Assembly: GCF_963921235.1 (NCBI RefSeq) | Contig: NC_086108.1 | Location: 14,694,001-14,758,000 of the forward strand | Source: Mobula hypostoma | Taxonomy: Eukaryota | Length of the DNA: 64,000 bases | Direction: 5' to 3' | Shown: positions 7,311 to 60,925 of the stretch, piece by piece | How the letters are laid out: every line of letters starts with the position of its first letter | How positions within the stretch are numbered: the stretch's first letter is position 1 | Position numbers and translations under genes: made by a program | Notes under the pieces: generated by a model | The model's database searches: none | Told to the model about the DNA's origin: nothing | Seen by the model: only the letters and a program-made list of their open reading frames with translations

Positions 7311-7608
7311 GCAAAGCCAAGCTGCACTAAGCATTACTATAGCAGTTAACATGACACTGTTACAGCTCGAGGTATTGGAGTTTGCAGTTCAATGCCCGCG
7401 TACTCTGTAAGAAAGTTTGTACTTTCTTCTCATGTGTGCATGGGTTTCCTCTAGGTGCTCTAGTTTCTTCCTGCAGTCCAAAGACATACCTGTTAGTAGG
7501 TTTAAAAATGCAAACACAAGGAAATCTGCAGATGCTGGAAATTCAAGCAACACACATCAAAGTTGTTGGTGAACGCAGCAGGCCAGGCAGCATCTCTAGG
7601 AAGAGGTG

Positions 7609-7646
7609 CAGTCGACGTTTCAGGCTGAGACCCTTCGTCAGGACTA
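7609..7646 (-). ncRNA. Minimal hammerhead ribozyme motif (PLE)
   Basis: Reverse complement tagtc-ctgacga-a-gggt ctca gcct-gaaa-cgtc|gactg. Confidence 0.8.
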
Positions 7647-8418
7647 ACTGAAGGAAGTTAGTAAGACATTTGAAAGTGGGAGGGGGAGGGGGAGATCCAA
7701 AATGATAGGAGAAGACAGGAGGGGGAGGGGTGGAGCCAAGAGCTGGACAGGTGATTGGCAAAAGGGATATGAGAGGATCATGGGACAGGAAGCCCGGGGA
7801 GAAAGAAAAGGGGGAGGGGGGAAAAAACCCAGAGGATAGGCAAGGGGTACAGTGAGAAGGACAGAGAGAGCAAAAGGAGAGAGAGAAAAAGAATGTGTGT
7901 ATATAAATAAACAACGGATGGGGTATGAGGGGGAGGTGGGGTATTAGTGGAAGTTAGAGAAGTCAATGTTCATGCCATCAAGTTAGAGGCTACCCAGGCG
8001 GAATATAAGATGCTGTTTCTCCAACCTGAGTGTGGCTTCACCTTTATAGTAGAGGAGGCCGTGGATAGACATATCAGGATGGGAATGGGACGTGGAATTA
8101 AAATGTGTGGCTACTGGGAGATCCTGCTTTCTCTGGCGGACAGAGCGTAGGTGTTCAGCAAGACACTCTCCCAGTCTGCGCGCGGGTCTCGCCAATATAT
8201 AGAAGGCCACATCGGGAGCACAGGATGCAGTATATCACCCCAGCCAACTCACAGGTGAAGTGTCACCTCACCTGAGGCCCAGTGGCCCTCTCATATCCCT
8301 TTTGCCAATTAACTGTCCAGCTCTTGGCTCCATCCCTCCCCCTCCTGTCTTCTCCTATCATTTTGGATCTCGCCCTCCCCCTCCCACTTTCAAATCTCTT
8401 ACTAGCTCTTCTTTCAGT

Positions 8419-8456
8419 TAGCCCTGACGAAGGGTCTCGGCCCGAAACGTCAGCTG
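8419..8456 (+). ncRNA. Minimal hammerhead ribozyme motif (PLE), one stem I mismatch
   Basis: tagcc-ctgacga-a-gggtctcggccc-gaaa-cgtc|agctg. Confidence 0.7.
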
Positions 8457-8639
8457 TACCTCTTCCAAGAGATGCTTCCTGGCCTGCTGCGTTCACCAGC
8501 AACTTTGATGTGTGTTGCCTGTTAGTAGGTTAATTGATCATTGTAAATTGTCCTGTGATTAGGCTAACCTCTGATAGGTGGATAGCACAGCTGAAAAGGC
8601 CAAAAGGGCCTGTTCCTTACTGTATCTCTTTTTAAAAAA

Positions 8640-10171: not shown

Positions 10172-13016
10172 GACCATGGACACCTTCAAAGCGATTGTGC
10201 AACCACCAACTGCGACTCCAGCCTTGAACTCCAGGCCGAGTCTTCACGCGATGCTATTGTGACTCCAGTCTCCCCTTCCCCCTCCACCACTCTGCAACCC
10301 TGTCTCCCTCAGATCCCACCATCTACTCCTGGACCCTCAGAGGCTCTATCTTCCTCTCACCCCACCCCAACCCTCCCCTCTCCACTGACACCACCAGCCT
10401 CCCTCCCTCTCCCCCCCTCTGATCCCACTTCTCATCCATGCCGGGTCTTTACCATCCCCTCCGAACTTCAACACGCTGAAGCAGAACGCTCTGTCCTCAG
10501 TAAGGGCCTCACCTTTGTCCCCCTTCGCCCACACCTCAGCGAGTTCCACATTCGCCATGACGCTGAACTCTTCTTCTGCCGTTTCCGTCTTTGAGCCTAC
10601 TTCTTCGGCAAGGACTCTCCCAACCCTACCGATGACCCCTTCTCCCGTCTTCAACCTTCCTCCTCTTCATGGACACCCCTCTCTGGTCTTCTGCCTGCTC
10701 TGGATCTCTTTATTGCTAATTGCCGACGGGACATCAACCATCTGGACTTCACCGCACCTTGTTCCCATTCCAACCTCACTCTTTCTGAACGCTTTGCTCT
10801 CCACTCCCTCCGCACTAATCCTAACCTTACTATAAAACCCACTGATAAGGGGGGGTGCTGTTGTAATCTGACCTCTACCTTGCAAAGGCACAGCGACAAC
10901 TCGCAGATACCTCCCCTTATTTACCCCTCAATCATGACCCTACTAAGGAGCACCAGGCCATTGTCTCCCACACCATCACCAGCTTTATCAGCTCAGGGGA
11001 TCTCCCATCCACTGCTACCAACCTTATAGTTCCCACACCTCGCACTTCCCATTTCTACCTCCTACCCAAGATCCGCAAACCTGCCTGTCCAGGTAGACCC
11101 ATTGTCTCAGCTTGCACCTGCTCCACTGAACTCATGTCTGCATACCTCGACACTGTTTTATTCCCCCATTGTTCAATCCCTTCCTACTTATGCTCGTGAC
11201 ACTTCTCACGCTCTGAATTTTTTCAATGATTTTAAATTCCCTGGCCCCCACCGCTTCATTTTCACCATGGATATCCAATCCCTATATACCTCCATCCCCC
11301 ACCAGGGTCTCAAAGCTCTCCACTTCTTTTTGGATTCCAGACCTAACCAATTCCCCTCTACCACCACTCTCCTCCGTCTAGTGGAATTAGTCCTTACTCT
11401 TAATAATTTCTCCTTTGGCTCCTCACACTTCCTCCAAACTAAAGGTGTAGCCATTGGCACCCATATGGGTCCCAGCTATGCCTGCCTTTTTGGTGGCTTT
11501 GTGGAACAATCCATGTTCCAAGCCTATATTGGTATCTGTCCCCCACTTTCCCTTCGCTACATCGACGACTGCATTGGCGCTGCTTCCTGCACGCATGCTG
11601 AGCTCGTTGACTTCATTAACTTTGCCTCCAACTTTCACCCTGCCCTCAAGTTTACCTGGTCCATTTCCAATACCTCTCTCCCCTTTCTTGATTTTCCTGT
11701 CTCTATCTCTGGAGACTGCTTTTCTACTGATGTCTACTGTAAGCCTACGGACTCTCACAGCTACCTGGAATATTCCTCTTCCCACCGTCTCTTGCAAAAA
11801 TGCCATCCCTTTGTCGCAATTCCTCCATCTCCGCTGCATCTGCTCTCAGGATGAGGCTTTTCATTCCAGGATGAAGGAGATGTCCTCCTTTTTTAAAGAA
11901 AGGGGCTTCCCTTCCTCCACCATCAACTCTGCTCTCAAACGCATCTCCCCCATTTCACGCACATCTGTTCTCACCCCATCCTCCTGCCACCCCACTAGGA
12001 ATAGGGTTCCCCTGGTCCTCATCTACCACCCCACCAGCCTCTGGGTCCAACATATAATTCTCCGTAACTTCCGCCATCTCCAACGGGATCCCACCACTAA
12101 GCACATCTTCCCCCCCTATGCTTTCTGCTTTCCGCAGGGATTGCTCCCTACGGGACTCCCTTGTCCATTCGTCCTCCCCATCGCTTCCCACCAATCTCCT
12201 TCCCGGCACTTATCCCCTTGTAAGCAGAACAAATGCTACACTTCCTCCTTCACCACCATTCAGGGCCTCAGATAGTCCTTCCAGGTGAGGCGACACTTCA
12301 CCTGTGAGTCGGCTGGGGTGATATACTGCGTCCAGTACTCCCAATGCGGCCTCCTTTATATTGGCAAGACCTGACGCAACCTGGGAGACCGTTTCGCTGA
12401 TCACCTATGCTCTGTCCGCCGGAGAAAGCAGGATCTCCCAGTGGCCACACATTTTCATTCCACGTCCCATTCCCATTCTGATATGTCTATCCACGGCCTC
12501 CTCTATTGTCAAGATGAAGCCACACTCAGGTTGGAGGAACAACACCTTATATTCCATCTGGGTAGCCTCCAACCTGATTTGAACATTGACTTCTCTAACT
12601 TCCGTTAATGCCCCACCTCCTCTTCGTACCCCATTCCTTATTTATTTATTCTTTTTTTTTAATTCCCCCTTTTTTCTCTCTTTTTTCTCCCTCTTTCCCT
12701 CTCACTATAACTCCTTGCCCATCCTCTGATGCTCCCTTCCCCCTTTCTTTCTCCCTCGGCCTCCTGTCCCATGATCCTCTCCCTTCTCCAGCCTCGTATC
12801 CCTTTTTCCAATCAACTTTCCAGCACTTAGCTCCATCCCTTCCCCTCCTGTCTTCTTCTATCATTTCGGATCTCCCCCTCCCCCTCCCACTTTCAAATCT
12901 CTTACGTCTCTTCTTTCAGTTAGTCCTGACGAAGGGTCTCGGCCCGAAACGTCGATTGTACCTCATCCTATAGATGCTGCCTGGCCTGCTGCGTTCACCA
13001 GCATTTTTTGTGTGTG
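10172..13016 (+). mobile_element. Penelope-like retroelement (Neptune-type), 5'-truncated, RT plus GIY-YIG, disrupted
   Basis: LSKGLTFVP, LLPKIRK..PGRPIVS, FTMDIQSLYTSIPH, QTKGVAIGTHMGPSYA, RYIDD, Cys-rich linker (PCKQNKC), GVIYC..C..LYIG; stops and frameshifts; 10-bp TSD TTCCCTCAAT at 10162-10171 and 13017-13026. Confidence 0.95.
12921..12958 (+). ncRNA. Minimal type I hammerhead ribozyme motif in a PLE terminal repeat
   Basis: TAGTC-CTGACGA-A-GGGT(CTCG)GCCC-GAAA-CG-TC|GATTG: intact core, stem I, stem II and palindromic ACGU stem III. Confidence 0.85.
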
Positions 13017-13187
13017 TTCCCTCAATATCTGGTGTGTGGGGTTCCTTGCTTTTACCATACATGATGGCTCAGAGATGTGCACCATCCACCACTTGGTACC
13101 AAGTCTGTGATCCTAAATAGTTGTTGCACTGCCGGAGTCTTGCTGTTCCTGTTGAGCTGTTTGGAGAAATGCAGCAGCTGAGTTTGA

Positions 13188-13430
<243 letters not shown>

Positions 13431-15010: not shown

Positions 15011-15235
15011 TTGTGCAACACACAATCTGCTGGAAGAAGGCATCAGGTCGAGCAGCATATGTGCGATGAAAGGAACTGTCAGTATCAAAACCCTCTCATC
15101 TGGCCTTTAACCCTCCAGATGCAGGTTTCAACCCAAAACATCGACAATTCATTTCCTTCCACAGATGCCAGTTGACCTGTTGTGTTCTTCCAGCAGATTG
15201 TTTGTTGCTCCAGATTCCAGCATCTGCAATCTCTG
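15011..15235. mobile_element. Old short PLE-derived fold-back element
   Basis: Inverted pLTR halves: caatctgctggaagaa versus ttcttccagcagattg; decayed hammerhead region in the centre. Confidence 0.65.
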
Positions 15236-17535
15236 GTGTCTCCATGAGCTTCTTGTGACTCCAGGAACATGTCTGAGGCTTTCATTCCTCACAAAGACTT
15301 TCCGCAATCTCAAGACTCAAGTGTCCCCACTTGCGTCAGTGAATTCTGTCCACCTGTCTCCTCAGCAGCAAAAGAGAAAAGATGTGACAACTCCTACCAG
15401 GAAACTTCCTTAATTGTAGTTACGTGTAGGGTTTCTGCACTCCAAGCAGCATGGCCTGCTACGATTATCTGGTTCTTCTTGAGAAGATAGTAAACAACTG
15501 ATTTATGCATCTTCTGCATTACTGATGGTGGAGAATCTCCGATTGTGCTGTACAGTGTACAGGTCACTGTAGAAGTTGGACACAATGACCACCGTGAAAT
15601 GACAATATATTCAAGTTGGATGATGTGTACTTGGTATCAGTGACAAAACCAGGAGATCACTCTTGTTTCATTTCTCGTTGTTTCTCCTTGAGGTGCCATG
15701 GAAGCCAGACAAGTTGCTACAGTCACTCTGAACATGTAACAACTACAAGCCAAGTGAGCTACTATAACCAGCGGTGAATATCCAGGAGCAGCCAAATCTT
15801 GTTCATATTGAAGAAAATTTTTCAAAATGAAATAGTGGGTCAACTGGCATTTTGAAGTGACGGGTAATCACAGTACTGCAGCCTCTGAATCATTTTGCCT
15901 CTTTCTGTACATGAGCACTGAAACATTAGATAAGCTCTAGATTAATTTCTGAATTACAGATCAATTTAGAGAGATAAATTCCTTTATGTGAGGGATTGAG
16001 GGTTATCAGTATGTAGTACATGAGGCAGAGGGAGTGTAAAATATCAATGTTAATAAATCTCTGAAGAAGAGAGACTGAGGAACAACAGTCAGTATACAGT
16101 TTTTGTTCCATTGTTTGGAATGTGGGCATCATTGCCACGACCAAAATTTATCACCCATCTCAATCACCCTCGAGAAGGTGATAGTATGCCTCCTCTTTGG
16201 CCCACTACAGCCCTTCTGGTGAAGATTATTCCACAGCGCTGTTGTCCAGAGAATTCCAGAGATTAGACCCAGCAATTCATTTCTGAGTCAGGAAGGAATG
16301 TGATTTCCAGGCGGTAGTGTTTCACATGCCTTCTGCCTTTGTCCTCCTTGATGACAATAGATGGTTTAATAGGGTGAGAACAGCAATGAGAGATCAATAG
16401 GGCATAACCAGGAGAAAGTGACCTCGGCATTAAATTATACAGAACATCAGTTCTTTGGAATTGTGTGTTAGGCTAAGGACAGATCTGCTTACCCAGAACT
16501 ACTGTGGGTCAGACATGTAGAGACAAGAACATTGCTTCTTGAGATGGTTCTTGACTAGGTCCTCTCAGCTGTCTCAGCCTTCACCATTCTCCCTCAGTTT
16601 TGCTGGGCCATGACTAACGCTTCATATTTCTGTGAAATAAGGACATCTGAAATGATGATCATGATGAAGCCATCTGTCTATCTCAAAGGACAATGGATGC
16701 AGTGACCTCTCCAGGGCACAAGTCTGGGAGGAAGGTATGGAGATCCTGGGTTGCCCAGTCTTCAAGATCCCCTTCTCAGCCTCTCCTGTGTAGTCCAAAG
16801 GAAAGCAAAGCAATGCGTTTGGCACCAGCTTGGATGCAGGAGCTGCTGAAAGGATATCAGTGACATCCAGCCACTCTGGATTTCCTGTCTGGGTTTACTC
16901 CCGTAGCCTTCATCTCTCCCGAGGCTCCCCACAAGGCAGTGGGGACATCTGAGAGAGATTAGCACAGATCACAGTATTCCTCGGCCTCACAATAATCGAG
17001 ACCTCCAACTCAATTCTCCAAGATACCCTGCAAGAAATTAACTCTATCTTTATATTAAAAAAAGAGGGATAGGGGCTAACTGCCTGCTTTCCAGACCTGG
17101 TTTTCCCTTGCCAGCCTATTCTTCCAGGCTAGTTTCCAATTCCCATCTCAATAATAATGACACCACTGCCTACTCTGCACATTTCTGCCACTTGCCTGCT
17201 ATTCACTTAGGTGAGAAACACAAGACAGATTAGTAACAGTGTTGCATACGGCATCTACAATTCTGACCATGTTGGGCTAACGCACAAGAAAGTGGTGTTC
17301 TGCACTCAAATGTCCAGGTCAATATCTCCTTTCACCATTGGTTCTCACTCATGTTGGTTGTGCCTTGGAAACCAACATTTACCATGAGGCAGTTCACTCT
17401 GAATCAGGTGAAGAACAAGTCCATTTCCTGGTCTCCCCACAGAAGTAGCACTGAACTGTGTTCTTGTTGAGAGATGGATCTGTCATTCTCTCTGTGGCTA
17501 TTATTGTTGTCTAACTGACTGTGCTTTTTTTGTAG

Positions 17536-19395: not shown

Positions 19396-19587
<192 letters not shown>

Positions 19588-20629: not shown

Positions 20630-21155
20630 TGATGAAATAAATATTCCATTTAGATAGCCTCCAACCTGACGGCATGAACATCAATTTCTCTAATTTCCAG
20701 AAATTTCAGCCTCCTTCCCCCTCTCTGTTCTTCCATCCCCTATTCTGGCTCCCCTCTTACCTCTTCTTTTCTCCTTACCTGCCTATGGCCTACCTCTGCT
20801 GCTCGTCCTCCTTCCCTTTTCCCCACGGTCAACTCCCCTCTCCTGTCAGATACCTTTTTCTTCAGCCCTTTATCTTCCCCACCTGTCACCTTCAGCTTCT
20901 CACTTCATCGCCCCTCCCCCAACCACCTATCTGCCCCCTCACCTGGCTTCACCTGTCACTTTCTAGCTTGTGCTCCTTCCCCTCCCCCACCTTTTTATTC
21001 TGACTCTTTCCCTTTTCTTTCCAGTCTGGAGGAAGGGGCTCAGCCCAAATCATTGATTCTTTATTCCTTTCCGTACATTGCTGCTGACATGCTGAGCTCA
21101 TCCAACATTTTGTGTATTTACTCTGGATTCCCAGCATCTGCAGAATATGTTGTGT
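20630..21155 (+). mobile_element. Old PLE 3' fragment
   Basis: SLQPDGMNINFSNF end of GIY-YIG, CT-rich UTR and pLTR tail ending cagcatctgcaga. Confidence 0.8.
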
Positions 21156-21869
21156 TAGTAGTTGGATCCCTGCAGGTTTGAAGAACATTGCCAGCTCTTA
21201 GTAATGCCTGACTTGCCCTGTAAATGTACATTTCTTTGCGTTAGTTGTTGTAGGTTGTGGCACTGCCTGAAATGAATGATCAAGACCCTATGTAGGTAAC
21301 CTCCGTCTATTTGATTGATTGATATTTTATCCATGTGAACACAACCTGTGTTCTCCAAGTGTCTCAATACGGTGGAGACGCTACTCATTAAGGGCTGGAA
21401 AGTCACTGGCCTCCATCTCGAAGCCTCCTACTTTGATGTGCTGCATACTCTGTAAAGCCACACAGGGTAAAAGGTCACAGTTCCTCTCCTCTGTCCAGAC
21501 TGAAGTAGCTCATCCCAGCTGCAAGATGTTTTGAGACTCTCTAGTTAGGTGATGAAGGGAGGTAGGCTTGGTTAAGGTTCCTGATGGTATGTAGAATCAG
21601 GTCATGTCTCACTGTGTACCCCAGGGTCACTGAAGGAAAAGTCGTCCTATCACTATCAAGACCAGGGTTCCCAACTTTTTTATGCCATGGACAAATACCA
21701 TTAAGCAAGGGGTCCTTGGGCCCCAGGTTGGGAACTCCATTTCTGAACTGTCAATCTCACTTGTCCAGCTCCTTGAATGAGCTTCCTGATCCACTGTTCT
21801 CACCAGCCTGAGCATTGGATGTAGCCCCTCTCCTCCACTGGTCCTGATGCCCATTCCCCTAACCAAATA

Positions 21870-24290
21870 GACCATAAGATAATAGGAGCAGAATTAGGCT
21901 ATTCAGCTCATAATGGGGTTGAAAGGGATAATAAACCAGCCATGATGCAATACCGTTATCCTGCTGATTTATTATCCCTTTCAATCCCATTATCCTGCCT
22001 TCTCCCAATAATCTTTGACACTGTTACTAATGAAGAACCTATACATCTCTGCTTGCAAAGTACCCAATGACTTTACCACCACAGCTGTCTGTGACAATGA
22101 ATGCCAGAGATTCACCACCCTGTGGCTAAAGAAATTCCTCCTTATCACTGTCTAAAGGAACATCATTGTATTCTGAGACCATGCCTTCTGGTCCTATACT
22201 CTAACACTATTGGAAACATCTGCTCTGTCTTGCACTTTCAATATACTATTGGTTTCAATGAGATTCCCCCCATTCTTCTCAGCTCCAGTGAGTACAGGCC
22301 CAGAGCCATCAAATGCTCCTCAGATGTTAACCCTTTCATTCCAGGGACCATTCTCCTGGACCCTCTCCAATGCCAGCACATCCTTTCTATGATAAAGAGC
22401 CCAGAATTGCTCACAGTACTTCATGTGGTCTGATTAATGTCTTATAAAGCCTTAGCATTACATCCTTGCTTTTATATTCTAGTCCTCTTGAAATGAATGT
22501 TAACATTACAATTGCATTCACTACCACCAACTCACCCTGCAAGTTAACCTTTAGGGAATCCTGCACGAAGTCTTCCAAGTTTCTTTGCACCTCAGATTTC
22601 TAAATTTGCTCGCTGTTTAGAAATTAGTCTTTGTCTTTATTCCTTCTATCAAACTGCATAACCATACACTTCCCTACACTGTATTCCATCAGACACTTCT
22701 TTGCTTATTCTCCTAATCTGTCCATCCTTCTACTGCTTCCTTAACACTGCTGGCCCCTTCACCAATCTTTGTATCGTCCACAAACCTAGCCATAAAGCCA
22801 TCAATTCTGTCATCCAATCATTGGCATATAACATGACATATAGCAGTCCTAACACCTACCCCTGTGGAACACCATGAGTCATTGGCAGCCAACCAATAAA
22901 GGCTCACTCATTTCCACATGCCAATCAGCCAATCTTCTATCTATGCTAATATCTTTCCTATAATACTATGGTATTTATCTTGTTTAGCAGCCTCACATGT
23001 GGCACCTTGTCAAAGGTCGTCTGAAATTCCAAGTAAACAACATCAACTAACTCTCCTTTGCCTATCCTGCATGTTATTTCCTCAAAAAATTCCAACAGAT
23101 TTTTCAGGCAAGATTTCCCTGAAGGAAACTATGCTGACTTTGGCCCATTTTATCATGTGCCTCCAAGTACCCCGACACCGCAACATTAATATGGACTCTA
23201 ACATCTTGCCAACCACTGACGTCAAGCTAACTGGCCAATAGTTTTCTGTCTTTTACTTCTGTCCCTTCGTAAAGAGTGGAGTGATATTGCAATAATCATT
23301 CCAGAATCTAATGATTCTTGAAAGATCACTGCTAATGTCCCCACAATCTCTTCAGCTACCTCTTTCAGAACCCTGGGGTATACACCATCTGGTCTAGGTG
23401 ACTTATCTACCTTCAGACCTTTCACCTTACCAAGCATTTTATCTTTACTAATAGGAACTGCACTCACTTCTGCCCCCTAACACTCTTTTGAATTTCTGGC
23501 ATACTACTGCTATTTTCCATGGTGAAGATTGATGCAATTGGCATCAAAATGGCAATCCATCTGCCATTTCTTTGTCCCCCATTACCACCTCTCCATCACT
23601 TTCCAATGGTCTGTTACTTACTCTAACCTGTCTTTTACTTTTTACATATCTGAAGAAAACTTCTGATATCCTCTTTGATATTATGATAGCTTACCTTTAT
23701 CTTTTCTCTCCTTATTGCTTTTTTAGTTGCCTTCTGTTGGTTTTAAAAAGCTTTCCAATCCTCTAGATCCCCACTATTTTTGCTATGTTATATGCCCTCT
23801 CTTTTACCTTAATGTTGACCTTGGCTTCCTTTAACAGCCACGGTTTCTACGCCCTCCCTTTAGAATGCCTCTTCTTTGTAATAAATCTACTGTGCACCTT
23901 CCAAATTGCTCCCTGAAACTCCAGCGATTGCTGTTCTGATGTCACCCCTGCTAGTGTCCCCTTCCAATCAACTTTGGTCAGCTCCTCTCAGATGCCTCTG
24001 TAGTTCCTTTTACGCCTCTGTAATACTGATATGTCTAATTTTAGCCTCTCCCTCTCAACCTGCAGGGTGAATTCTATCATATTATCGTCACTGCCTCCTA
24101 AGGGTTCTTTTATTTTAAGCAAAACACACAAAATGCTGGAGAAACTCAGCAGGTCAGGCAGGTTACTTTAAGCTCTCTAATAAAATCTAGTCCATGACAC
24201 AAGACTTAGTCAATAATTGCCTTTTCCCTAAAGGTTCAACCACGAGCTGCTCTAAGAGCCATCTTGTGGGCATTCTATAAATTTCTTCAA
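21870..24290 (-). mobile_element. Degenerate CR1 LINE (about 2.4 kb)
   Basis: KGLKVDKSPRPDGVYPRVLKEVAEEI plus RT and 3' UTR remnants; a short PLE tail is inserted near 24120-24160. Confidence 0.85.
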
Positions 24291-26175: not shown

Positions 26176-26176
26176 A

Positions 26177-26379: not shown

Positions 26380-28660
26380 CAGTATAAAGAGGAGAGGGGG
26401 AGTGACGAAGAGTAGAATGGGAAGATGATAAGTATAAAGAGGAGAGGGAGAGTGATGAGAGACCATCCTGAGGTGATTGGAGGACAGAGGGAAGGATATA
26501 GGATTACAGACAGGTCGAGCTAGGCGGGGGGGTGGGTGGATTTAGGGGACAGAGGCAATTGGATAGCAAATTGAGGTAGATGGAATAAGGTGAAGGGTGA
26601 AGGTTAGAGATAGCTATGGGAGGATGATAAATAGGAACACAAAGAGCTGCCAATGCTAGAGTCTGATAACTGAGCCAGTAATGGGCTCTTGCTTCACTAA
26701 ACTTAACTTAACTCCTTGATTCCATCCTGTCTTCCCTTGTTCATTCCTTTCCACCTACTTGCAGGACACTTCACATGCATTCCATCACTTTGATAACTCC
26801 CTATTCGCTGGCTCCCATTGCTTCAACTTCACTGTGGATATTCAGTAGTTATACACCTTCAGTCCCCCATCGTGATAGTCTTAGAACTCTGTTTCTTTCT
26901 GCAACAAAGGCTAAATCATTTTCTCTCCACCAACACTCTCATTTGCCTGGCTGAACAACTCTTGGCTCCACTCACTTCTTACAAATCAAAGATGTAGACA
27001 TAGGTATCTAAATAAGCCCCAGTTATTCATTGGCTGCATGGTACAGTCTCTATTCCAAACCTTCACAGCTCTTTCTCTGTTACAGCAATGACTGTGTTGG
27101 TGTTGCTTCATGCATCCATGTGGAATTCATCAATTTATCACCTTCACCACAAGCTTCCACCCTCCCGTCAAATTTACGTGGACTATTTCTGAAACTTCTC
27201 TCCCTTTTCTAGTTCTCTCTGCCTCCTTCTCAGAAGACAAACTATCCACTGCTATTTACTATAAATGCGCTACCTCCCACAGCTACTTAGTCTACACCTC
27301 TTCCCACCTTGTCTCTTATTGCAGTGCCATTTGTCATCCCTTACTCCTAGTTTCTCTATCAATGCCACATCAGCTCTCAAGATGAGGCTTTCTGTTCCAG
27401 GACATCTGAACTGCCCTCCATTTTCAGGAATCATGCTTTCCCTTCCGCTGTGGTTCACTGTCAGGTCACTTGTCTGAGTGCTACTGGTACCATGTAACCC
27501 AGTACTACCTGTCGCATGGTTGGGTGGTCGGCGACTAAACTGGCTCTCCTACCAGGCTTGCCTGGTGAGGAGGGTGGTTAGACACCCTGCAGGACGGATG
27601 AACCTCTTGTAGGGTCAATGGCCATCTACCAAACACGTGCCGTGAAGCGCAGCAAGGGCATCCCTTGCATTGAAGCTTGGTCTGGCCATTCACTGCAACA
27701 GAACTTCCCCCAGCTGTCTTGGACTCCACCATGCCACTGGATCAGGGAAAGGATGTCGAGAGGGTGGGTCTGGACCTGTGCAACCCCTACTCACCTAAAA
27801 TCCATTCACGCACACGCTGTTCCTTTTAGGAAACTGAAGGGAACCATCATCATCCTATGGGATGGATAGCCAGAGAGGTTGATGGAGCCCAATCATGTTT
27901 CTCATACTTCTGCTCTCGTCCCACCTCCTCCCAGACAGAACAGTTCCCCTGATTCTTACTTTTCACCCTACCAGCCTCCATACCCAACACATCACCCGTT
28001 ATCATTTCCTCCAGAGGCAATGAGATCTCACTGCCTTTCCCTTCCCACCTTACACAGTGACAACTCACTCTGTGACACCATCATTCATTTGCTCAGACCT
28101 CCCAGCCACATCTCCCTGACCCCAACACATTTGCTTGCAATCACAGGAGATGTGACACTTGTCCGTACACCTCCTCTCTCACCATCATCCAGGCACTTAA
28201 GTAGTCTCTCACTCTCTCCCTCTCTCTCCCCTCCCCTCCCCCTCCCTCTCCCCACCTCCCTCCACCCACTGTACCTGATATGTCTCCTCTCACAACTGGT
28301 TCCATCTGTCCTTCACCTCTCCCATAATAGTTCCCACGTTCACCTCCTTTACTTAGCCAACTCCAGCACTGGTAGCCCTTGTGTTCCTGCTTATCTTCCT
28401 CCAGCCATGTCTCCAACCTTCACCCTTTCCTACCCTCATTTCACTGCCTCTGTTTTCCCTTTGATTGATGCTACTCAGCATCACCTACCATTGTCTCCCA
28501 ACTCTACCCACCTGCCACAGTCCACTAATATCTCAATTCCTCTCTTATCACTCCCCCTTTATTCTTTTACTGACCCTCTTCAGTCTTTCTGCAAGGTTTT
28601 GGCACGAAATATCAAAAATTCCTTTCCCCCAACAGATGCTGCTCAACCTGCTGAGTGTCA
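26380..28660. mobile_element. Old PLE (short - arm, long + RT/UTR arm) split by an RTE-type element
   Basis: FTTSFHPPVKFTWTISETSLPFL RT motif near 27140-27210; CT-rich UTR; pLTR tail near 28590-28655. Confidence 0.7.
27465..27870 (+). mobile_element. Non-autonomous, probably RTE-type element with a (CAT)n tail and a possible HDV-like 5' fold
   Basis: GC-richer insert interrupting a PLE; gcaacccctactcacctaaaa leader motif; catcatcatc end. Confidence 0.5.
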
Positions 28661-28889: not shown

Positions 28890-31800
28890 TAAAAATTGTA
28901 CAGCAGAGAAACAGACCCCTCATCCCACCATGTCTATGTTGAACATCAAGTGCATAACAATATTACAACATTTTACTAGCATTTGATCTGTAGCCTACTG
29001 TGCTCTGGTGATTCAGGTGCTTTTAATATGTTGCATAAGAGTTAGAACAGGCAGCTCAGGACAAGCCCTTTGACCCACCGTATTGTGTCGAAAATGTTGT
29101 TAGACATTTCCTCTCTCTCTTCCTCTTCTAAAACCTTAAATCTATGTCCTCTAATCTTAGACACTCTACTATGATGAAAAGTTTACTATCCACCTATTTT
29201 CGCATAATTTTGTATACCTGTCAGGTTGGTTCTCATCCTCCTCCACTCCAAGGAAATAAAAACCCCACTCTATCCAGGCTCTCCTCGCAGTTGAAACAAT
29301 CCATCCCATGTCACGTCGTGATGGAGGATTTCGACCCGAAACATTGACAGTTCTTTTCCTCCCAACAGATGCTGCTCGATCCACTGAGTTCCTCTAGCAG
29401 ATTGTTTGTTGCAGCATATTCCAGCATCTGCCACCTCTTGTCTCTCTGTCCTCTGCACCGTCTCAAAAGCAATCATGTCCTTCCAATACTCTTTGTGATT
29501 TTCGTATATTCTGAGCCCCAGCTAATGAAGGAAAGCATCCTTTATTTATCCACGCAAATGAATTCAAGGGCTCTTGAACTTGTAAACTAAGATTCCTCTG
29601 TTCCTCAATACTCCCGAGAGACGTATGCCCCATTGTGCATGCTATGCCCCTGATATACCCTCCAAAATGCATAATTTCACACTACCATGTTTAAATTTCA
29701 TCTGCCATAACTAAGTGAACAAGGCACATGTAGTGAGACAAATTAAATTGTTATATTTTAGCTGTTATAGAACATAGAGCAGTACAGCTCAGGAACTGGT
29801 CCTTCATCCCACAATGATGTGCTGCACCAATTACTATAGTAATCAAATGACCAACTAAACTAATCCCTTATGCCTACCAATGTCCATATCCTTACATTTA
29901 CCTCATATTCATATGTCCAACTAAACCTCTCTTAAGAATCTCTAATGTATCTGCCTCTACCACCAGCCCATGCAGCACATTCCAGACACCCAGCACTCTC
30001 TGTGTAAAAAAAACTTGCCCCTCACATTTCCTTTGAAATTACCCCCCCCCCCCCCACACACCTTAAATGCATGCCCTCTGGTATTGGACATTTCAACACT
30101 GGGAATAAGATATTGTCTGTCTACTCTATCTTATCAACCTCGATCAGATCCCCCCTCGAACATCTCATTATAGCACATATTCTCTAATCAAGGCAGCATC
30201 TTGGCATCATGTTTCTGAAACATGAGCAGTACTGACATTGGTACAGGCCTTTTAGATAAGGGAGAGGAAGGATGAACAAAGAGTAAGGCAACAACAATCT
30301 TGGAGACAAGAAGTCTCTGTGAATCATAATATTATGGAAGGCTCATTTTAAATGAGGGAGCAAAAAGGGACATTCACCTTATTGACAGAGTATAAGATCT
30401 CCAAGCAGTCCACTCTGATGGAGAGACAAGTATGGAAACAAGTCATTTACTGCAGCAAATCCAAGTGGGTGAAAAATATTTCAATGCCCCAAATATTAAC
30501 TGCAATGCAGTCAGTACAAACAGTACACAAGGCGCAAAGTACCTAAAGTACCTGCAGAAGGACTTCTTTGATGGCAGTATGTGATAAGCCCATCTCAAAG
30601 AGAGTAACAACATCTGCTGGACTTACTGGGTTGAGCAGCGGCTGTGGGGAGAAAGGAATTGTTGAGGTTTCGGGTCGGAACCCTGCATCAGGATTCCCAC
30701 CCCTCCACCTCAAGGAGAGCAACTCTGTATTTATTTTTTGGAATGAACCTGAGTACTGTGAGAGCATTTCTTTAGAAGATAATTCATTTAGATTCAATGT
30801 AGTTAGGGATAGGATAACGCTAAAATAGGAGTTTGTATTAGGGTAGAGGCAATCTTACCAGACAGAAAAGAGGACAGAAAATAGTTACACCAATATAAAT
30901 CTTTAGAAAGAACAGAAGGTATTTAATGAAGGGCACTCAAGGGCTTCAAAGTGAATTAGGTCCGGTAAAGATAAAGAACAAGACTATCAAACCCAGAGCC
31001 CTTGGATGATGTGATAACACAGGCAGGAAAAGGCAAAAACAGGAAGCTTTGATCAGAAGCTAGAATGCAGCAGACAGCTCGGAAGATTAGGAAGTATGAA
31101 AGAGTAATTAATAAGGAAATGTGGAAAACCAAAGAGAAAATTATGGCAAAAATCCACTATGTACATAAAGCAAAGAATGCGTAGGTTCTTAATGGATATT
31201 TTGCAGCTGTTTACAAAAGGGGGATAATCTCAGTGTTATAATTAACATAAATGGGTGAAATAAAGATGGTAAAAGAGGAAATATTAAGGGATTTTGCGTC
31301 TTTGGAAGTGGATAAACTACTGCAGTTGGATGAAATGTATATCAAGCTGCTAAGAGAAGCAAGGAGGGAAATTGCAGAAGGTCTAACTAAATCTTTCCCG
31401 ATCTCCCAGGGTATTTCCAAATGCAGTATCCATAATAAGGAGGTTTGCAGATGAAACAAATATTGGGTATGTGGTTGACAATAGAGATCTTTAGACAGCA
31501 GAAAGACAAAAATGGTTTGGTAAGATGAGGAAAAACATTCTTAATGTTATTTGATCAATACACTCAGAAGTGTTGACAATCATTCTGAACAGAACCCCTT
31601 GCATTGTTACCCCCTTCAGTATAAGGACAATGGTGTGCTGCTGCAATTCGTCTATAAGTTAATGGAGTAGAAATAGGCTATTCAGCCCACTGATCGTGCT
31701 ACACCATTCAATTATTGTGGATGTTTTAACCCCATTCACCTGCCTTCTTTCCGTAACCCTTAACCATGTTACCAAGCAAGAACCTATTGATCTTAGCCTT

Positions 31801-33494: not shown

Positions 33495-33790
33495 GTAAGC
33501 GGACATTCATCATCGACATCACAACTCCACAAACCTTAACCGGGAGTAACCACATCAAGAACACTTTGGTGCGTTTTATCACAGTAAAATGTCCCAAGGT
33601 GTATCATGGTGTGTTTATCAGACACAATTAAAATGCTCCTGATAATTGGGACCTGAAATAAAAACAGGTAGCAGAAAATAATTAGCAGGTTAGAAGTGCA
33701 TCAGAGGCAAGAGAAACAGATTAACTTTTCATCACATCACTGGATGTATAATTCTCTCCAACACATACACATTCTTACTGTTGCTCAGAC

Positions 33791-33977
33791 CTCAGCAGCT
33801 CAGGCAGCATCTATGGAGGGAAATAGACAGCCGACAATTCAGCTCAAGGCTCTTCATCTGATCTTGATAAAGGGTTTCAACCTGAAATGTTGACTATCCA
33901 TTTCCATCCAGAGATGCTGCTTGACGTGCTGTGTTCCTCCGGCACCTTTTGTGTTTCCTCCAGGTTCCAGCATCCCC
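33791..33977. mobile_element. Old short PLE-derived fold-back element
   Basis: caggcagcatctatggagggaaatagacag versus ctatccatttccatccagagatgctgcttg inverted arms. Confidence 0.65.
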
Positions 33978-40231: not shown

Positions 40232-40289
40232 ACCTTCAACTTTTTTTTTTAAAAACAGACAGTGTGATGTTTGCTTCCAGAATTTGCTG

Positions 40290-40422
40290 CCACTTTCAAT
40301 CTCTTACTAGCTCTTCCTTCAGTTAGTCCTGATGAAGGGTCTCAGCCCGAAACGTCGACTGTACCTCTTCTTAGAGATGCTGCCTGGCCTGCTGCGTTCA
40401 CCAGCAACTTTGATGTGTGTTG
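40290..40422 (+). mobile_element. 133-bp solo PLE terminal repeat (hammerhead-bearing) inserted in Tc1
   Basis: TSD TTTGCTG at 40283-40289 and 40423-40429; matches the PLE 3' end. Confidence 0.92.
40324..40361 (+). ncRNA. Minimal hammerhead ribozyme motif (PLE), canonical CUGAUGA core
   Basis: tagtc-ctgatga-a-gggt ctca gccc-gaaa-cgtc|gactg. Confidence 0.85.
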
Positions 40423-46290: not shown

Positions 46291-46471
46291 AACAACAGGA
46301 ATTCTGCAGATGCTGGAAATTCAAGCAACATACATCAAAGTTGCTGGTGAACGCAGCAGGCCAAGCAACATCTATAGGAAGAGGCGCAGTCGACGTTTCA
46401 GGCCGAGACCCTTCGTCAGGACTGAGTCTCGGCCTGAAACGTCGACTGCGCCTCTTCCTATAGATGCTGCT
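46291..46471. mobile_element. Young 181-bp PLE-derived fold-back element
   Basis: 15-bp TSD TGGCTCTATGATACA (46276-46290, 46472-46486); 50-bp inverted arms 46360-46409 and 46426-46475 with one mismatch. Confidence 0.93.
46387..46424 (-). ncRNA. Minimal hammerhead ribozyme motif (PLE fold-back)
   Basis: Reverse complement cagtc-ctgacga-a-gggt ctcg gcct-gaaa-cgtc|gactg; perfect 5-bp stem I. Confidence 0.8.
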
Positions 46472-54200: not shown

Positions 54201-55534
54201 GGTGTCTCTTTCATGTCCACAGAATCTGTTGTCTGCTCCCCTGTCTATTGAATCCCACCACTGCAGTCAGATTCTCCCTTCTTCCTTTCGGAGCCAGACA
54301 GAGTCTCAGTGCCAGAGACCTGGATTGCAGGGACTTTCCTCTCTACCTCCCAACAGCATCCAAAGTGGCTACTTGTTAATGAGAGAATCAGCCACAGGAG
54401 TATCCAGAAGTGATTGCCCATTCCCTTTCCTCTCCTGAAGAACTTGTGTCCTGCACCTTAGCTCTAACTACAAACCTCTGAAAGATTTTTACACAGCAGG
54501 CAGGAGGATCCTGAACAAGGAGACATAGCTAGAAGGGTCTGAAGGGATATGCCCCAGGTTTATTGAGGGAGGCAAGAGATAAGATTGCTGGGTCATTGGC
54601 CAATATCTTTGTGTCCTCTCTAACCAGATGCAAGGTCCCAGGGGACTGGTGAGTAGCTAATATTGTTCCATTATTCAAGAAGGCAACCAGGGATCATCCT
54701 GGAAACTATAGACTGGTGAGTCTCATGTCAGGGTAAGAAAGTTACTGGAGAGAATTCTTAAGGTTAATATTGATGAGTATATGGAAAACCATAGCCTAAT
54801 TAAGGAGAACTAGCATAGCTTTGTGCAGAGTAAGTCGCGTCTTACTAACTTGGTTGCATTTTTTGATGAGATGACAAGGGTGACTGATGAAGATAGAACA
54901 GTGGAAGTTGTCTACATGGATTTTAGTAAGGCTTTCGACAAGGTCCCTCATGGGAGGCTCATCCAGAAGATTAAGGTGAATGGGATTTATGATGGATTGG
55001 CCGTTTGCATTCAAAACTGGCTTGCCTATAGAAGATATTCGTTGTTGAAGGGAATTATTCTAGCTGGAGGTCTGTGATTCGTGGTGTTCCGCAGAGATCT
55101 GTATTGGGACCTCTGATGTTTCTGATATATATAACTGACCTGGATGAAAATGTTGAGGGGTGGGTGAGTAGATCAGTGGGAGATATGGGCAGAGAAATTG
55201 CAATGGAGTTTAACCCAGTCAAATGTGAAGTCAAATGCAAAGAGACGGTACACTGTTAGTGACAAGACCCTTAACAGTGTAGATGAGCAGAGGGACCTTG
55301 GGGTCCAAGTTCATAGCTCCCTCAAAGCGGCTATACAGGTTGATAGGGTGATTACGAAGGCATATGGCATGCCTGCTTTTATTAGTTGATGCACTGAGTT
55401 CAAAAGTCAGCAAGTTATGTTGCAGTTTTATAAAACTCCAGTTAGGCTACATTTGGGGTATTGCGAATAGGTCTGGTCACCCTATTATAAGAAGGACGTT
55501 GAAGCTTTGGAGAGGGTGCAGAAGAGGTCTACCA

Positions 55535-56855
55535 CAGCTAATGGACTACTCCTTTTCCCACCCTGTCCCTTGCAAAAATGCCATCCTTTTCTCGCAATTC
55601 CTCCATCTCCACCGCATCTGCTGTCAGGATGAGGCTATTCATTCCAGGACGAAGGAGATGTCCTCCTTTTTTAAAGAAAGGGGCTTCCCTTCCTCCACCA
55701 TCAATTCTGCTTTCAAATGCATCTCCCCCATTTCACGCACATCTGCTCTCACCCCAGCCTCCCGCCACCCCACTAGGAATAGGGTTCCCCTTGTCCTCAT
55801 CTACCACCCCACCAGCCTCTGGGTCCAACATATAATTCTCCATAACTTCAGCCACCTCTAAAGGGATCCCACCACTAAGCACACCTTTCCCTCCCACCCC
55901 CCCCCCCCCGCTTTCCGCAGGGATCGCTCCCTACACGATTCCCTTGTCCATTCGGTCCCCCCCATCCATCCCCACTGATCTCCCTCCTGGCACTTATCCT
56001 TGTAAGCAGAACAAGTGCTATACATACCCTTACACTTCCTCCCTTACCACCATTCAGGGCCCCAGACAGTCCTTCCAGGTGAGGCGACACTTCACCTGTG
56101 AGTCAGCTGGGGTGATATACTGCTTCCAGTGCTCCCGATGCGGCCTTCTATATATTGGCGAGACCCAACGCAGACTGGGAGATAGTTTTGCTAAACACCT
56201 ACGCTCTGTTCACCAGAGAAAGCAGGATCTCCCAGTGGGCACACATTTTAATTCCACATCCCATTCCCATTCTGATATGTCTATCCACGGCCTCCTCTAC
56301 TGTCAAGATGAAGCCACACTCAGGTTGCAGGAACAACACCTTATATTCCATCTGGGTAGCCTCCAATCTGATGGCATGAACATTGACTTCTCAAACTTCC
56401 ACTAATGCCCCACCTCCCCTTCATACCCCATCTCTCATTTATTTATTTATTATCACCCCCTTTTTTTCTCTCTCTCTTTTTTTCTCCCTCTGTCCCTCTC
56501 ACTATAACTCCTTGCCTGCTCTCCATCCTCTGGGCTGCCCTCCCACTTTCTTTCTCCCCAGGCCTCCCGTCCCAGGATCCTCTCCCTTCTCCAGCTTCGT
56601 ATCCCTTTTGCCAATCAACTTTCCAGCTCTTGGCTCCATCCCTCCCCCTCCTGTCTTCTCCTATCATTTTGGATCTCCCCCTCCCCCTCCCACTTTCAAA
56701 TCTCTTACTAACTCTTTCTTCAGTTAGTCCTGACGAAGGGTCTCGGCCCGAGACGTCGACTGTACCTCTTCCTAGAGATGCTGCCTGGCCTGCTGCATTC
56801 ACCAGCATTTTTTGTGTGTGTTGCTTGAATTTCCAGCCTCTGCAGATTTCCTCGT
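55535..56855 (+). mobile_element. Young 5'-truncated Neptune-type PLE (thumb, Cys linker, GIY-YIG, 3' repeat)
   Basis: GTYPCKQNKCYT..GVIYCFQCSRCGLLYIGETQRRLGDSFAKH..THFNSTSH; TSD GT(C/T)TACCA at 55527-55534 and 56856-56863. Confidence 0.95.
56725..56762 (+). ncRNA. Hammerhead motif with a core mutation (GAAA>GAGA), probably inactive
   Basis: tagtc-ctgacga-a-gggtctcggccc-gaga-cgtc|gactg. Confidence 0.65.
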
Positions 56856-59479
56856 GTTTACCAGGACACTGCTGGATTAGAGAGAATGTGCTACAATGAG
56901 AGGCTGGACAAATTTAGGTTGTCTCTCTGAAGCGGTGGAGGCTGAGGGGAGTTCGGATAGAGATTTATAAGATTATGCAAAGCATAGATAGAATAGACAG
57001 ACTTTTATTTCCCGGGGCTGAAATGTCAAATGCCAGAGGGCATGTATTTAAGATGAGAAGAAATAAATTCAAAGGAAATGTGAGGGGCAAGGTTTTTTCA
57101 CACAGAAAGTGGTGGGTGCCTGGTATGCACTGCCTGGGGAGGTGGTAGAGCAGATACATTAGAGATTTTTAAGAGATGTTTAGATAGGCACTTGAATGTT
57201 AAGGAAATAGAAGCATATTGGCATTGTGTTGGCAGAAGAGATTAGTTTAAATAGCCATCTGATTTTAATTTCATTGGTTCAGCACAACATTGTGGGCCAA
57301 AGGGTCTGTACCTGTCCTGTACTGCTCCATGTTATGAGATATAATCTGAGTTTAAAAAAGGGCAATACATCAGGGAAGAGGAAGGTTACCCGGACACTGT
57401 GTTTCAGGAAGCAATCGCACCCATTTGACCAGGGACGAGAGAGTATAACTACAATTGCAAGTGAGGCAGGCAGTGGGATCCCAAAGGTAGAGCCTCAGCC
57501 CTTGAACTTGCCTAACCAGTTGCTACCTGTGAGGATGAGCTACAGAACTGCAGTACCATGGTTCATGGAGCCAGTCAAGAGGGAGGAGAGAAGAGGAATG
57601 TAGCCTTGATGGGGGTTTGTATAGTCAGGGAAATAGACACAGTTCTCAGTGACAAGGATCGAGAGTCCTGTAAGCTGTGTGTCTTGGGTTCAGGGCATCT
57701 CACCTGACCTGCAGACCAATATGGAGTGGGAGGGGAGAAATCCAGTTGCCGTGGTCCACGTGGGCACCAACAACATAGGAAAGAGGTTTCTGCTGAGGGA
57801 ATTTGAGCAGCTAGGGGTTAAATTAAAATGCAGAACTAAAAGGTAATAATCTCTTACCTGTGCCACATGCAAATTGGCAAAAGTTTAATTGGATCAGAGA
57901 GCTAAATGGGTGGCTCAAAGATTGAAGTGGGAGAAGTCGATTTGAATTCGCGGGGCATTGGCATCAGTATTGGGAAAGGAGGGAGCTGTTCTGATGCGAT
58001 GAGCTCCACCTGAACCGTACTGGGACCAGGGTCCTGGTGAATCACACGCTATAATCAAGCTACAGATAAGGCTTTAGGAGGGTGGTTTCAAAAGTGAGGG
58101 TAAAGTAAAAAGGAAGGAGAGTGCAGGAGAGGTTACAAAATTTTCCAGAATAAAGAAAAAAGCAAAAACTTTGGAAAGGAATAAAAATTTAACTACTGGT
58201 AACATGGGGAAAAATTTAAAAGGGCAATGAATACAGGAGTGAAGGTGTTCTATTTGAATGCACGCAGTATGTGGAATAAGGGAGATGATCTTGTAACACA
58301 GTTAAAAATTGGCAAGCATGACATTGGGGTCCTCAGTGAGTCGTGGCTGAAAGAAGATCACAGTTGGAAAAGACAGGCAGATAGGCAGAGGGGATGAGGT
58401 GGCTTTGTTGGTAAAAAAATAAAATAAAATCGTTAAAGCTGACACAGGACATAGATGTAGAAACCTTGAGAGCAGAGTTAAGACATTGCAAAAGTAAAAA
58501 ACAAACTTGATGGGAGTTATATACAGGCCTCCAAACTACAGGCCAGATGTGGGGTACAAATTACAGTGGGATATAGAAACGGTATGTAAAAAGGTAATGT
58601 TATGATGGTCATGGGAGATTTCGATATGCAGGTGGATTTGGGAAAATCAGGTTTGTTCTGGATCCCAAGAGAAAGAATTTATAGAATGCCTATGAGATGA
58701 CTTTTTAGAACAGCTCGTGGTTGAGCCCACCAAGGGATCATCAATTCTGGATTGGATGTTGTTTAATGAACCTAATATGATTAAGGTGCTTAAGGTAAAA
58801 TAATAGAGTTCACACTGCAGTTTGAGAGGGAGAAGCTAAAATCAAATGTATCAGCATTCTGGTGGAGTAAAAGGATTTACAGAAGCATGAGAGAGGAGCT
58901 AACCAAAGTTGATTGGAAGGGGCCCTTAGAAGAGATGATGGCAGAGCACCAATGGCTAGAGATTTCAGGGAGCAATTTGGAAGGCTCAGGCTAGATTAAT
59001 CACTAAGAAGAATAATTCTAAAGGGAGAGTAAGGCAAACACAGCTCATAAAGAAAGTAAAGAACAGCGTAAAAGCAAAAGAGAGGGCAGATAATATCACA
59101 AAAACAGTGGGAACCTAGAAGACTGGGAAACTTTTAAAAACCAACAGAAGGCAACTCAAAACAGCAACAAGGAGAGAAAAAATTAAATATGAATGTAAGC
59201 TAGCTAATAATATACAAGAGCATACCATACATTTTTTTAGATATATAAAGAGTGGATATCGGAATAGTATCACTGTAGAAGACACCAGCTGTATGCTAGA
59301 AATTGGTGCATATCATGGGGCATAAGTGAGTATATTCACTATTACTAAAGAGAAGGGGTTTGGGAAACTGAAAGCTCTGAAGTTAGATAAGTCACCTGGA
59401 CCTAAAGGACTACAACCCAGTGTTCTGAAAGAGGTAACCGAAGAGATTTGATGGCATTAGTAATGATCTTCCAAGAATT

Positions 59480-60925
59480 CACAAACAAGAGAACATCTGC
59501 AGATGCTGGAAATCCAAGCAACACACACAAAATGCTGAGGGATCTCAGCAGGCCAGGCAGCATCTATGGAAAAAGGTACAGTGGCTGTTTCAGGCCAAAA
59601 CCGCTTTAAGGACTGGAGAAAAAAAAACTGAGGAGTAGATTAAAAAGATGGGGGGAGGAGAGAGAGACACACCAGATACTAAGTGAAACCTGTTGGGGGG
59701 GGTTATAAAATAAAGAGCTGGGAAGTTGATTGGTGAAAGAGACAGAAGGTCATGGAAGAAAGAAAAGGGGTGAGGAGCACCAGAGGGAGGTGATGGGTGG
59801 GCAAGGAGATAAGGGGAGAGGGAAAAGGGGATGGGAAATGATGAAGGGGGGATGGGGGTGGAGGCATTTCAGGAAGTTTGAGAAATTGGTGTTTAAGCCA
59901 TCAGGTTGGAGGCTACCCAAACGGAATATAAGGTGTTGTTGTTCCAGCCTACGCAACTCTTCCATTCAACACACATATGCTTTTACCCCATCCTCTCACC
60001 ACCCTACCAGGGTGTCCACACCCACCACCCCACCAGCCTCTGCATTCAGCACATAGTTCTCCGAAACTTCCACCACCTCAAACGGGATCCCACCAGCAAG
60101 CACACCTTTCTCTCCCCTCCCCGCCCTCCAGCTTTCTGCTTTCCTCAGGGATCCTACGTGACTACTTTGTCCCTTCATCCCTCTCCAGCAGTCTCCTTAC
60201 TAGCACTTGCAAGCAGAACAAGTGCTACACCTGCCCAACACCTCCTCCCTCACTACCATTCAGGGCCCTAAGCAGTCCTTCCAGGTGAGGCAATACTTCA
60301 CCTGTGAGTCAGTTGGGGTCATTTACTGTGTTTGGTGCTCCCAATGTGGCCTCCTGTACATCAGTGAGACCCGATGTAGATTGGGAGGCTACTGCATCTG
60401 CCAGAACAAGTGGAATCTCCCAGTGACCACCGATTTTAACTCCACTTCCCATTCCCATTCCGATATGTCCATCCATGGCCTCCTCTACTGTCATGATGAG
60501 GCCACACTTAGGTTGGAGGAACAACACCTTATATTCCGTTTGGGTAGCCTCCTGATGGCATGAACTTCGATTCCTCAAACTTCCTGTAATGCCCCCCACC
60601 TTCACCATTTCCCATCCCCTTTACTCTCTCTCATCTTATCTCCTTGCTGCTCATCACCTCCCTCTGGTGCTCCTCCCCCCGTTTTTCTTTCTTCCATGGC
60701 CTTCTGTCTCTTTTACCAATCAACTTCCCAGCTCTTTACTTTATTCCCACCCCCCTCTAGGTTTACCTACCACCTGGTGGTTCTCTCTACCCTCCCCCCA
60801 CCTTTTTAAAATACCCCTCAGCTTTATTTCTCTAGTCCTCCCAAAGGGTTTTGGCCCGAAACATCGACTGTACTTTTTTCCATATATGCTGCCAGGCCTG
60901 CTGAGTTCCTTCAGCATTTTGTGTG
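59480..60925. mobile_element. PLE fragment with an inverted (tail-out) terminal repeat, older subfamily
   Basis: 16-bp TSD TGATCTT(C/T)CAAGAATT (59464-59479, 60926-60941); - arm to about 59950; + arm with CKQNKCYTCP and GIY-YIG. Confidence 0.9.

Follow-up and report, generated by a model that had tools for sequence, protein, structure and literature searches.

Short hammerhead-bearing insertions in the ray Mobula hypostoma as probable by-products of a Neptune-type Penelope-like element

Introduction

A stretch of 64,000 nucleotides from the genome of the ray Mobula hypostoma (assembly GCF_963921235.1, contig NC_086108.1, positions 14,694,001 to 14,758,000 of the forward strand; hereafter the window) contains many dispersed copies of a sequence with a hammerhead ribozyme motif, standing singly (solos) or as two inverted arms (fold-backs, or two-headed insertions), two short TSD-flanked units measuring 133 and 181 bp between their target-site duplications (TSDs). 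We propose, with a probability of roughly three in four, that all of these copies are insertions made by an autonomous Penelope-like element (PLE) of the Neptune type, and that the short ones are by-products of the insertion steps set out below. A preliminary description of the window had taken the short units for an independent, retrozyme-like family. This view could not be upheld: the units of the window are not in tandem, short copies start mostly upstream of the predicted cut, they have subfamily-diagnostic bases in common with long copies, their junctions are varied (37 types among 50) and the ribozyme of the fold-back is predicted to be wholly masked by the antisense arm beside it. Because of the tandem order that is missing, the bases in common, the varied junctions and the masking, the 133- and 181-bp units are best read, on sequence grounds, as truncation products of the autonomous element and not as retrozymes.

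The family is large. In the window, 20 arms are picked out by a 310-column profile, which also has 39 matches in 200 kb of unselected genome, and this latter density suggests several hundred thousand arms of all ages genome-wide; counted by exact two-anchor matches, the young ribozyme copies of the 3.48-Gb genome number at least 90,914. Two-headed insertions were sampled in the window and the unselected 200 kb (264 kb in all), and a separate set comprises 29 loci selected by similarity. Two pairings made by script, L042 and 31972 with 33852, were dropped as spurious. Element positions count from the T of TCCTGA, which is 0 and stands at window position 56728; on this scale the predicted cut follows +29. 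The arm starts of short fold-backs, the junction types and the pile-ups at anchors are hand counts or hand calls.

The parent element

Two 5'-truncated copies in the window retain coding sequence. The tailed copy at 55533..56859 (+), which lies inside a CR1-like fragment, carries a Cys linker and a GIY-YIG endonuclease (EN); its frame for reverse transcriptase (RT) and GIY-YIG ends at 56405, and the hammerhead (56725-56762, +) follows about 320 nt downstream. The broken copy at 10172..13017 (+) holds RT, EN, 3' untranslated region (UTR) and a hammerhead at 12921-12958, is tail-less and is flanked by a TSD of 9-10 bp. The attribution of the motif to the minimal hammerheads of Penelope long terminal repeats (pLTRs) was thus borne out in both: the terminal repeat of this Neptune-type PLE carries a type I hammerhead of the minimal kind, an arrangement already described in 2014.

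Protein relatives that share the RT/GIY-YIG architecture are 55-71% identical, the closest named one (71%) being from a shark. The RVT_1 match in the window is weak (E = 0.0054, below the cut-off), and a Pfam scan did not detect GIY-YIG in the window fragment, which a pairwise comparison did match (E = 2e-37), together with the Cys linker and a CCHH motif. In the window copy the linker reads C-x4-C-x2-Y, its third Cys being mutated (position 56026); Cys is the majority state there in all four sequencing runs compared. A CX2-5CxxC linker upstream of GIY-YIG is described as a mark of Neptune or Nematis that is absent in Poseidon (PMC8557442), and by that definition the linker and the CCHH motif place the element in Neptune or Nematis, not Poseidon. 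The same GIY-YIG with CCHH and the same linker are described for EN+ PLEs of the Neptune clade (Craig et al., 2021, PMC8557442; Arkhipova et al., 2013, PMC3846280), and vertebrates are reported to hold only Neptune and Poseidon (bioRxiv 10.64898/2026.07.22.740005). Judged by these sequence features, the driver is a Neptune-type PLE with a single RT and, at the C-terminus, a GIY-YIG. An old PLE RT fragment (26803-27424), about 69% identical to the young family, adjoins a decayed terminal repeat with pyrimidine-rich upstream sequence (28548..28656, +), and the two are possibly one old element.

Two-headed insertions and their tails

The most regular feature of the two-headed insertions is the asymmetry of their tails. 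All 12 unbiased pairs combine one tailed with one tail-less arm (p = 0.00024 at 50:50), tailed arms ending at +124 to +135 and tail-less ones at +63 to +105; a thirteenth pair, L049, read by eye, is built in the same way. Among the 29 similarity-selected loci a second outward-facing arm was found in 13, and it is tail-less in 11 of the 11 with a visible end. Very short products of 180-240 bp make up 9 of the 13 unbiased pairs. Rare variants are shared more often by paired arms (9) than by re-paired ones (3.7; p = 0.0035, 10 pairs). The tail-less arm extends further upstream than its tailed partner in 4 of 15 pairs; thus it is not always a copy of the first cDNA, and priming on RNA from both target strands is favoured. 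In some two-headed insertions a third, inverted piece of the open reading frame (ORF) lies between the arms (L010:409-671, L016:2210-2358), pointing to extra template switches during joining.

Three examples stand in the window. In the insertion at 7511-8517, flanked by a 14-bp TSD (7489-7502 and 8518-8531), the tailed arm (7511..8274, -) comprises the 3' end of the ORF, the 3' UTR, a hammerhead (7609-7646) and the tail, and its tail-less partner (8290..8517, +) carries a hammerhead at 8419-8456. An older one (59481..60926, TSD of about 15 bp) joins a tailed minus arm (59481-59950) to a longer tail-less plus arm (59951-60926). The young 181-bp fold-back (46291..46471) consists of a tailed minus arm (hammerhead 46387-46424) and a 50-bp inverted arm between 15-bp TSDs (46276-46290 and 46472-46486).

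Breakpoints at the front edge of the ribozyme

Short fold-backs number nine in 264 kb, or about 30 per Mb from the six in the unselected 200 kb. Their arms begin close to the 5' edge of the hammerhead: of 18 starts, 12 lie between about -3 and +3 and the other six between +6 and +27, with no start upstream of this range, and seven solos likewise begin near 0 without the pyrimidine tract in front. Genome-wide, head-to-head junctions (gap of at most 20 nt, counted at four anchors) number 1,768 at 0, 266 at +30, 125 at -30 and 10 at -78; once subfamily coverage is corrected for, these counts correspond to relative stop rates of 2.6, 1, 1.3 and 0.4, respectively. The 37 types among the 50 junctions listed at 0 include microhomologies and templated inserts. 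The edge is sharp in old copies and modest in young copies overall. Accordingly, the breakpoints are not purely those of random 5' truncation, the contrary case named in the preliminary description; they are enriched at the 5' edge of the ribozyme, about 30 nt before the cut. The main boundary of the units lies there, with a minor, ambiguous signal at the cut itself.

Directly 5' of the ribozyme, a branch-point-like motif, a pyrimidine run and an AG follow one another (56705..56727, +). We take this stretch to resemble a splice acceptor as well as an initiator. Subfamilies differ in the branch-point-like motif, and the AG also belongs to stem I. The 50 junctions listed at 0 share no common upstream exon. 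Among 15 of the 510 joints in contigs of four of the 24 listed runs, no recurrent GT..AG joint to 56725-56728 appeared, and contigs show neither starts nor ends. One contig of run X5, guessed to be RNA of another organism, joins 56727 and 56769 on opposite strands at a depth of 1,673, which is a fold-back junction. For Penelope of Drosophila virilis, an intron is reported to end at helix I of the ribozyme (PMC4209133) and transcription to start 46 bp before that intron (PMC2377424). The stop may reflect an RNA 5' end, a splice junction or release of RT on the pyrimidine run.

Proposed mechanism and alternatives

In the mechanism that we favour, the terminal repeat would contain the minimal hammerhead and, behind it, an RT-entry region of about 100-135 nt. 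Both target strands would be cut 7-15 bp apart, as shown for an anole PLE (PMC11167929), and reverse transcription would begin inside the RNA at two sites, one at about +131 (tailed) and the other at about +80 to +107 (tail-less). The genomic pattern suggests that both target ends are then extended, one from each site, which would yield one tailed and one tail-less arm. Repair by microhomology or templated insertion would unite the two cDNA ends head to head, and extension of a single end would leave a solo copy. The enrichment of cDNA ends at or just 5' of the ribozyme's front edge is seen in the genome; the likeliest causes are that many template RNAs have their start or a splice junction at this point, or that RT dissociates on the pyrimidine run. 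Given where these ends lie, the templates would mostly be uncleaved RNA. The short copies would be dead products in neutral decay.

Several observations weigh against this account. Two junction types recur six and five times among the 50, and recurring types could be amplified masters. When the young subfamilies are pooled, the excess at the edge is modest (1.11% per nt from 0 to -30, against 0.69 and 0.73 in the flanks), and such per-nucleotide loss ratios, derived from two-anchor survival, depend on unequal conservation of the anchors. The share of arms that end no more than 3 nt from the anchor is about 67 of 100 at 0, but it is also about 48 of 100 at the -30 control. The hotspot is overstated by junction counts because inverted joins need local self-complementarity, which is present in the ribozyme region and absent from the upstream pyrimidine tract. 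At +30, 19 of the 50 junctions listed are perfect palindromes centred on the cleavage site; they fit cleaved templates or, equally, a natural 6-bp palindrome centred there, and the data cannot separate the two. Only 1 of 20 arms has its partner as nearest neighbour. Finally, no full-length element with a 5' repeat was seen, no dedicated examination of the full-length element having been made.

We consider it unlikely that the short copies form a SINE-like (short interspersed element) non-autonomous family, whose short RNAs would come from master solo or fold-back loci, start at the 5' edge of the hammerhead and be mobilised in trans by the PLE enzyme. Such a family would suit the sharp edge of older copies, the recurrence of some junctions and the density of short fold-backs; the variant of the 46291 copy, moreover, reaches -30 in 11 of 27 arms against 51 of 73 others (p = 0.011; compared by hand over the first 100 matches, one contig), and trans-mobilisation by pLTRs has been reported (PMC3846280). 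Yet the junctions are mostly unique, every fold-back has one tailed and one tail-less end, as expected of de novo formation, and copies that start at 0 are missing the upstream sequence that a master would probably need as a promoter. No diagnostic base or junction is limited to short copies in our small samples. A short-only subfamily had seemed to exist (0 of 27 with the -30 anchor) and was rejected: the apparent diagnostic base vanished once a second upstream variant was searched, the variant having another base upstream and occurring in long copies (L038, L046).

Self-priming, in which a palindrome lets the first cDNA, or else an antisense RNA, fold back on itself and serve as template, is in our judgement improbable, since in the 4 of 15 pairs mentioned above the tail-less arm holds upstream element sequence absent from the tailed arm, and the anole PLE extends both strands in vitro (PMC11167929). 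Its appeal lies in the palindromic junctions, in the tailed arm being longer in 11 of 15 pairs (11 of these loci having been selected for a long tailed arm), and in the second arm of the 46291 copy, which stops at +63 with microhomology to the TSD; self-priming has also been proposed for rotifer PLEs (PMC3846280). Retrozymes proper, whose self-cleavage would define monomers that circularise and re-insert, are very improbable here. Many young copies do keep an intact core, about 100 of the 266 junctions at +30 would centre on the cut (extrapolated from the 19 of 50 listed), and animal retrozymes have been proposed to derive from pLTRs (bioRxiv 10.64898/2026.07.22.740005). Against this, a search of the window found no tandem hammerhead-bearing units, no unit is bounded by a cut site at both ends, the main breakpoint precedes the cut by 30 nt, and the two ribozymes of a fold-back stand on opposite strands, where they are predicted to be masked; in vitro, the anole PLE could do without cleavage (PMC11167929), and one young variant has G.U at a conserved core pair in 27 of 27 listed copies (hand count; see below).

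Within the favoured account of insertion by the autonomous PLE, a more specific version is possible though doubtful: the front edge of the hammerhead may be the 5' end of the PLE mRNA, set by an initiator or a splice junction, and priming by an enzyme dimer, for both target strands, would take place on the terminal redundancy's 5' copy, with run-off after 100-135 nt, in a manner that may be likened to retroviral strong-stop DNA.

The hammerhead motif

A 38-nt motif with a full hammerhead core had been announced at six sites, 7609 (-), 8419, 12921, 40324, 46387 (-) and 56725. The motif is present at all six on the strands given; the core is not full at 56725, because GAGA stands there for GAAA. 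A strict descriptor (CUGANGA, extra nucleotide, stem II, GAAA, NUH and stem I) is passed by four window copies (7609-, 12921+, 40324+, 46387-) and by five in the unselected 200 kb, with no match in 100 shuffles. The decayed sites near 15120, 21025, 29320, 30660, 33865 and 60835 are true relatives of the motif, and stem III is indeed only the palindrome ACGU: a true helix III is absent and positions 15.2-16.2 are palindromic.

The argument from covariation did not survive. At 8419, the change of a stem I pair from U-A to C-G is real, and it is the sole double-sided one among 27 distinct copies, but the neighbouring first pair of that stem is broken (C opposite A); near 30670, the supposed preservation of stem II pairing from U.G to U-A is a one-sided change. 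Over 30 of 47 extracted cores that could be aligned (indels and truncations left out), representing these 27 distinct copies, the stem score is 0.151 against 0.192 for shuffled columns, and 498 of 500 shuffles score at least as high. Covariation as a sign of selection was therefore rejected, although among dead copies it is a weak test. Core CpG positions decay as non-core ones do (45 young arms).

The pair 10.1-11.1 is G-C in 15 and G.U in 11 of the 27 distinct copies. G.U replaces the conserved G10.1-C11.1 in apparently younger variants, including the window copies 46387-46424 and 7609-7646, and it is fixed in the listed copies of the young variant mentioned above. These variants suggest that the demand on cleavage may have relaxed while the lineage was still amplifying. 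At 30659-30696 (-), 15111-15147 (+) and 4575-4615 (-), an older subfamily has CUGAUGCA; here, C at core position 9 is followed by A, a core variant absent from the young family.

Stems I and II are predicted to form in the isolated 38-mer (pair probability 0.9-1.0). For the 133-bp unit the predicted probability is at most 0.15, and for the fold-back RNA it is 0.00, a single long hairpin of -118 kcal/mol being predicted instead; with two 38-mers, the dimeric fold is not the predicted minimum. An Rfam scan of the window, read up to E = 1, gave no match to a hammerhead family. A match to mir-3926 at 46383-46452 was discarded, as it falls under the gathering score and merely reflects the hairpin, and a weak twister-P1 match at 26172-26227 (24.5 bits; gathering score 67.2; E = 0.79) is probably due to chance.

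Further copies and other features of the window

Solo and fold-back short copies both exist, as described earlier, and the copies fall into several age classes. TSD-flanked short units are confirmed at two places: the 181-bp fold-back and the young, tail-less 133-bp solo at 40290..40422 (+), with an intact hammerhead (40324-40361) and a 7-bp TSD (40283-40289/40423-40429). Most copies in the window are longer than these units or lack a clear TSD, and automatic TSD calls for old solos were set aside as mostly chance 5-8-mers. Two old short fold-backs have both arms starting from the 5' edge of the hammerhead: 15014..15244, with a tail-less minus arm, a tailed plus arm and a decayed TSD, and 33788..33994. 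The same edge begins two old solos, 29314..29448 (+), tailed and without a clear TSD, and 30610..30696 (-), with the U-A variant of stem II. A further old tailed solo (31973..32136, -) starts about 38 nt upstream of the hammerhead, and another (20640..21158, +) runs from the end of the ORF to the tail with a decayed hammerhead near 21022-21061. A tail-less fragment of 51 bp (24113..24163, -) derives from the region downstream of the hammerhead.

Other repeats accompany the family. A 37-bp minisatellite, in two blocks within a 465-bp tandem duplication (34689-35583), is unrelated to it. Inverted repeats of 126 bp, 2.1 kb apart (39062-41443), enclose the 133-bp solo and a CR1-like fragment, and between them lies a frame (40745-41122, -) that we take to resemble the N-terminus of a Tc1/mariner transposase. 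Two CR1-like copies of long interspersed elements, 2904-4166 and 51378-53450, are 93-98% alike, stand 47 kb apart and face in opposite directions; there are many further CR1-like fragments, one of them split by the PLE copy at 55533-56859.

Relation to known systems and implications

Much of this anatomy is already known, namely the ribozyme in the pLTR, the solo and inverted arrangements, the inverted partner and the one-sided tail; because the ribozyme and the solo/inverted anatomy are textbook PLE features, the finding as first framed is ordinary. The PLE hammerheads described in PMC4209133 share with ours the type I core, the extra nucleotide before stem II, a stem I of 4-5 bp, the palindromic 15.2-16.2 positions and the location in pLTRs. 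Most motifs in that paper are single and dispersed, 'probably related to truncated PLEs', and opposite-strand pairs 100-700 bp apart are reported as well. Stem II has 4 bp here against 7-8 bp in the Schistosoma families, and the copies number at least 90,914, compared with a maximum of about 9,000 there. The portions of PMC4209133 available to us make no mention of breakpoint clustering, and a search of two of its supplementary files turned up neither shark nor skate terms.

PLE insertions are likewise described as heavily truncated at the 5' end, with a neighbouring copy that is inverted and 5'-truncated, a TSD, and a tail of 30-40 bp at one end only (PMC8557442, PMC3846280); what differs here is that tail asymmetry is counted (12/12) and that two-headed products of 180-240 bp are common (9/13). 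For PAc, a Poseidon element of Anolis, Frangieh et al. (2024, PMC11167929) describe two RT start sites some 30-40 nt apart downstream of the hammerhead, which bound the tail, as well as cutting and extension of both target strands with uncleaved RNA as substrate, in agreement with our pattern. PAc differs in its clade and in having no Cys linker, and, as far as the available text goes, its two start sites are not tied to the two arms of inverted insertions. Animal non-LTR (long terminal repeat) retrozymes (PMC7229834; bioRxiv 10.64898/2026.07.22.740005) are similarly non-coding, related to pLTRs and equipped with a type I hammerhead; they are described as tandem, cleavage-bounded arrays of at least two hammerhead units with circular RNAs, whereas our units stand alone or inverted, and it appears to be RT entry and exit, not cleavage, that set their ends. 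The bioRxiv study sampled one cartilaginous fish. A literature search of titles and abstract openings, with subscription papers outside its coverage, returned nothing on a breakpoint hotspot at PLE hammerheads or on PLE hammerheads in rays.

The additions of the present analysis are the strict tail asymmetry, with either arm being the longer, and the stop at the front edge of the ribozyme, not at its cut site. Their value lies in statistical power, as some 100,000 young copies make the mechanism of PLE integration testable. The patterns link the two RT start sites of the anole element, known in vitro, to real inverted insertions, and they argue against cleavage defining the inserted unit. If the front edge of the hammerhead were indeed the 5' end of the PLE mRNA, with double priming on its 5' repeat, the double-primed intermediate would have left its fossil record in the roughly 100,000 short hairpins; these would map the start of the RNA and show that the ribozyme is uncleaved during insertion, and the origin of the inverted repeat and tail of PLEs would become answerable from one genome.

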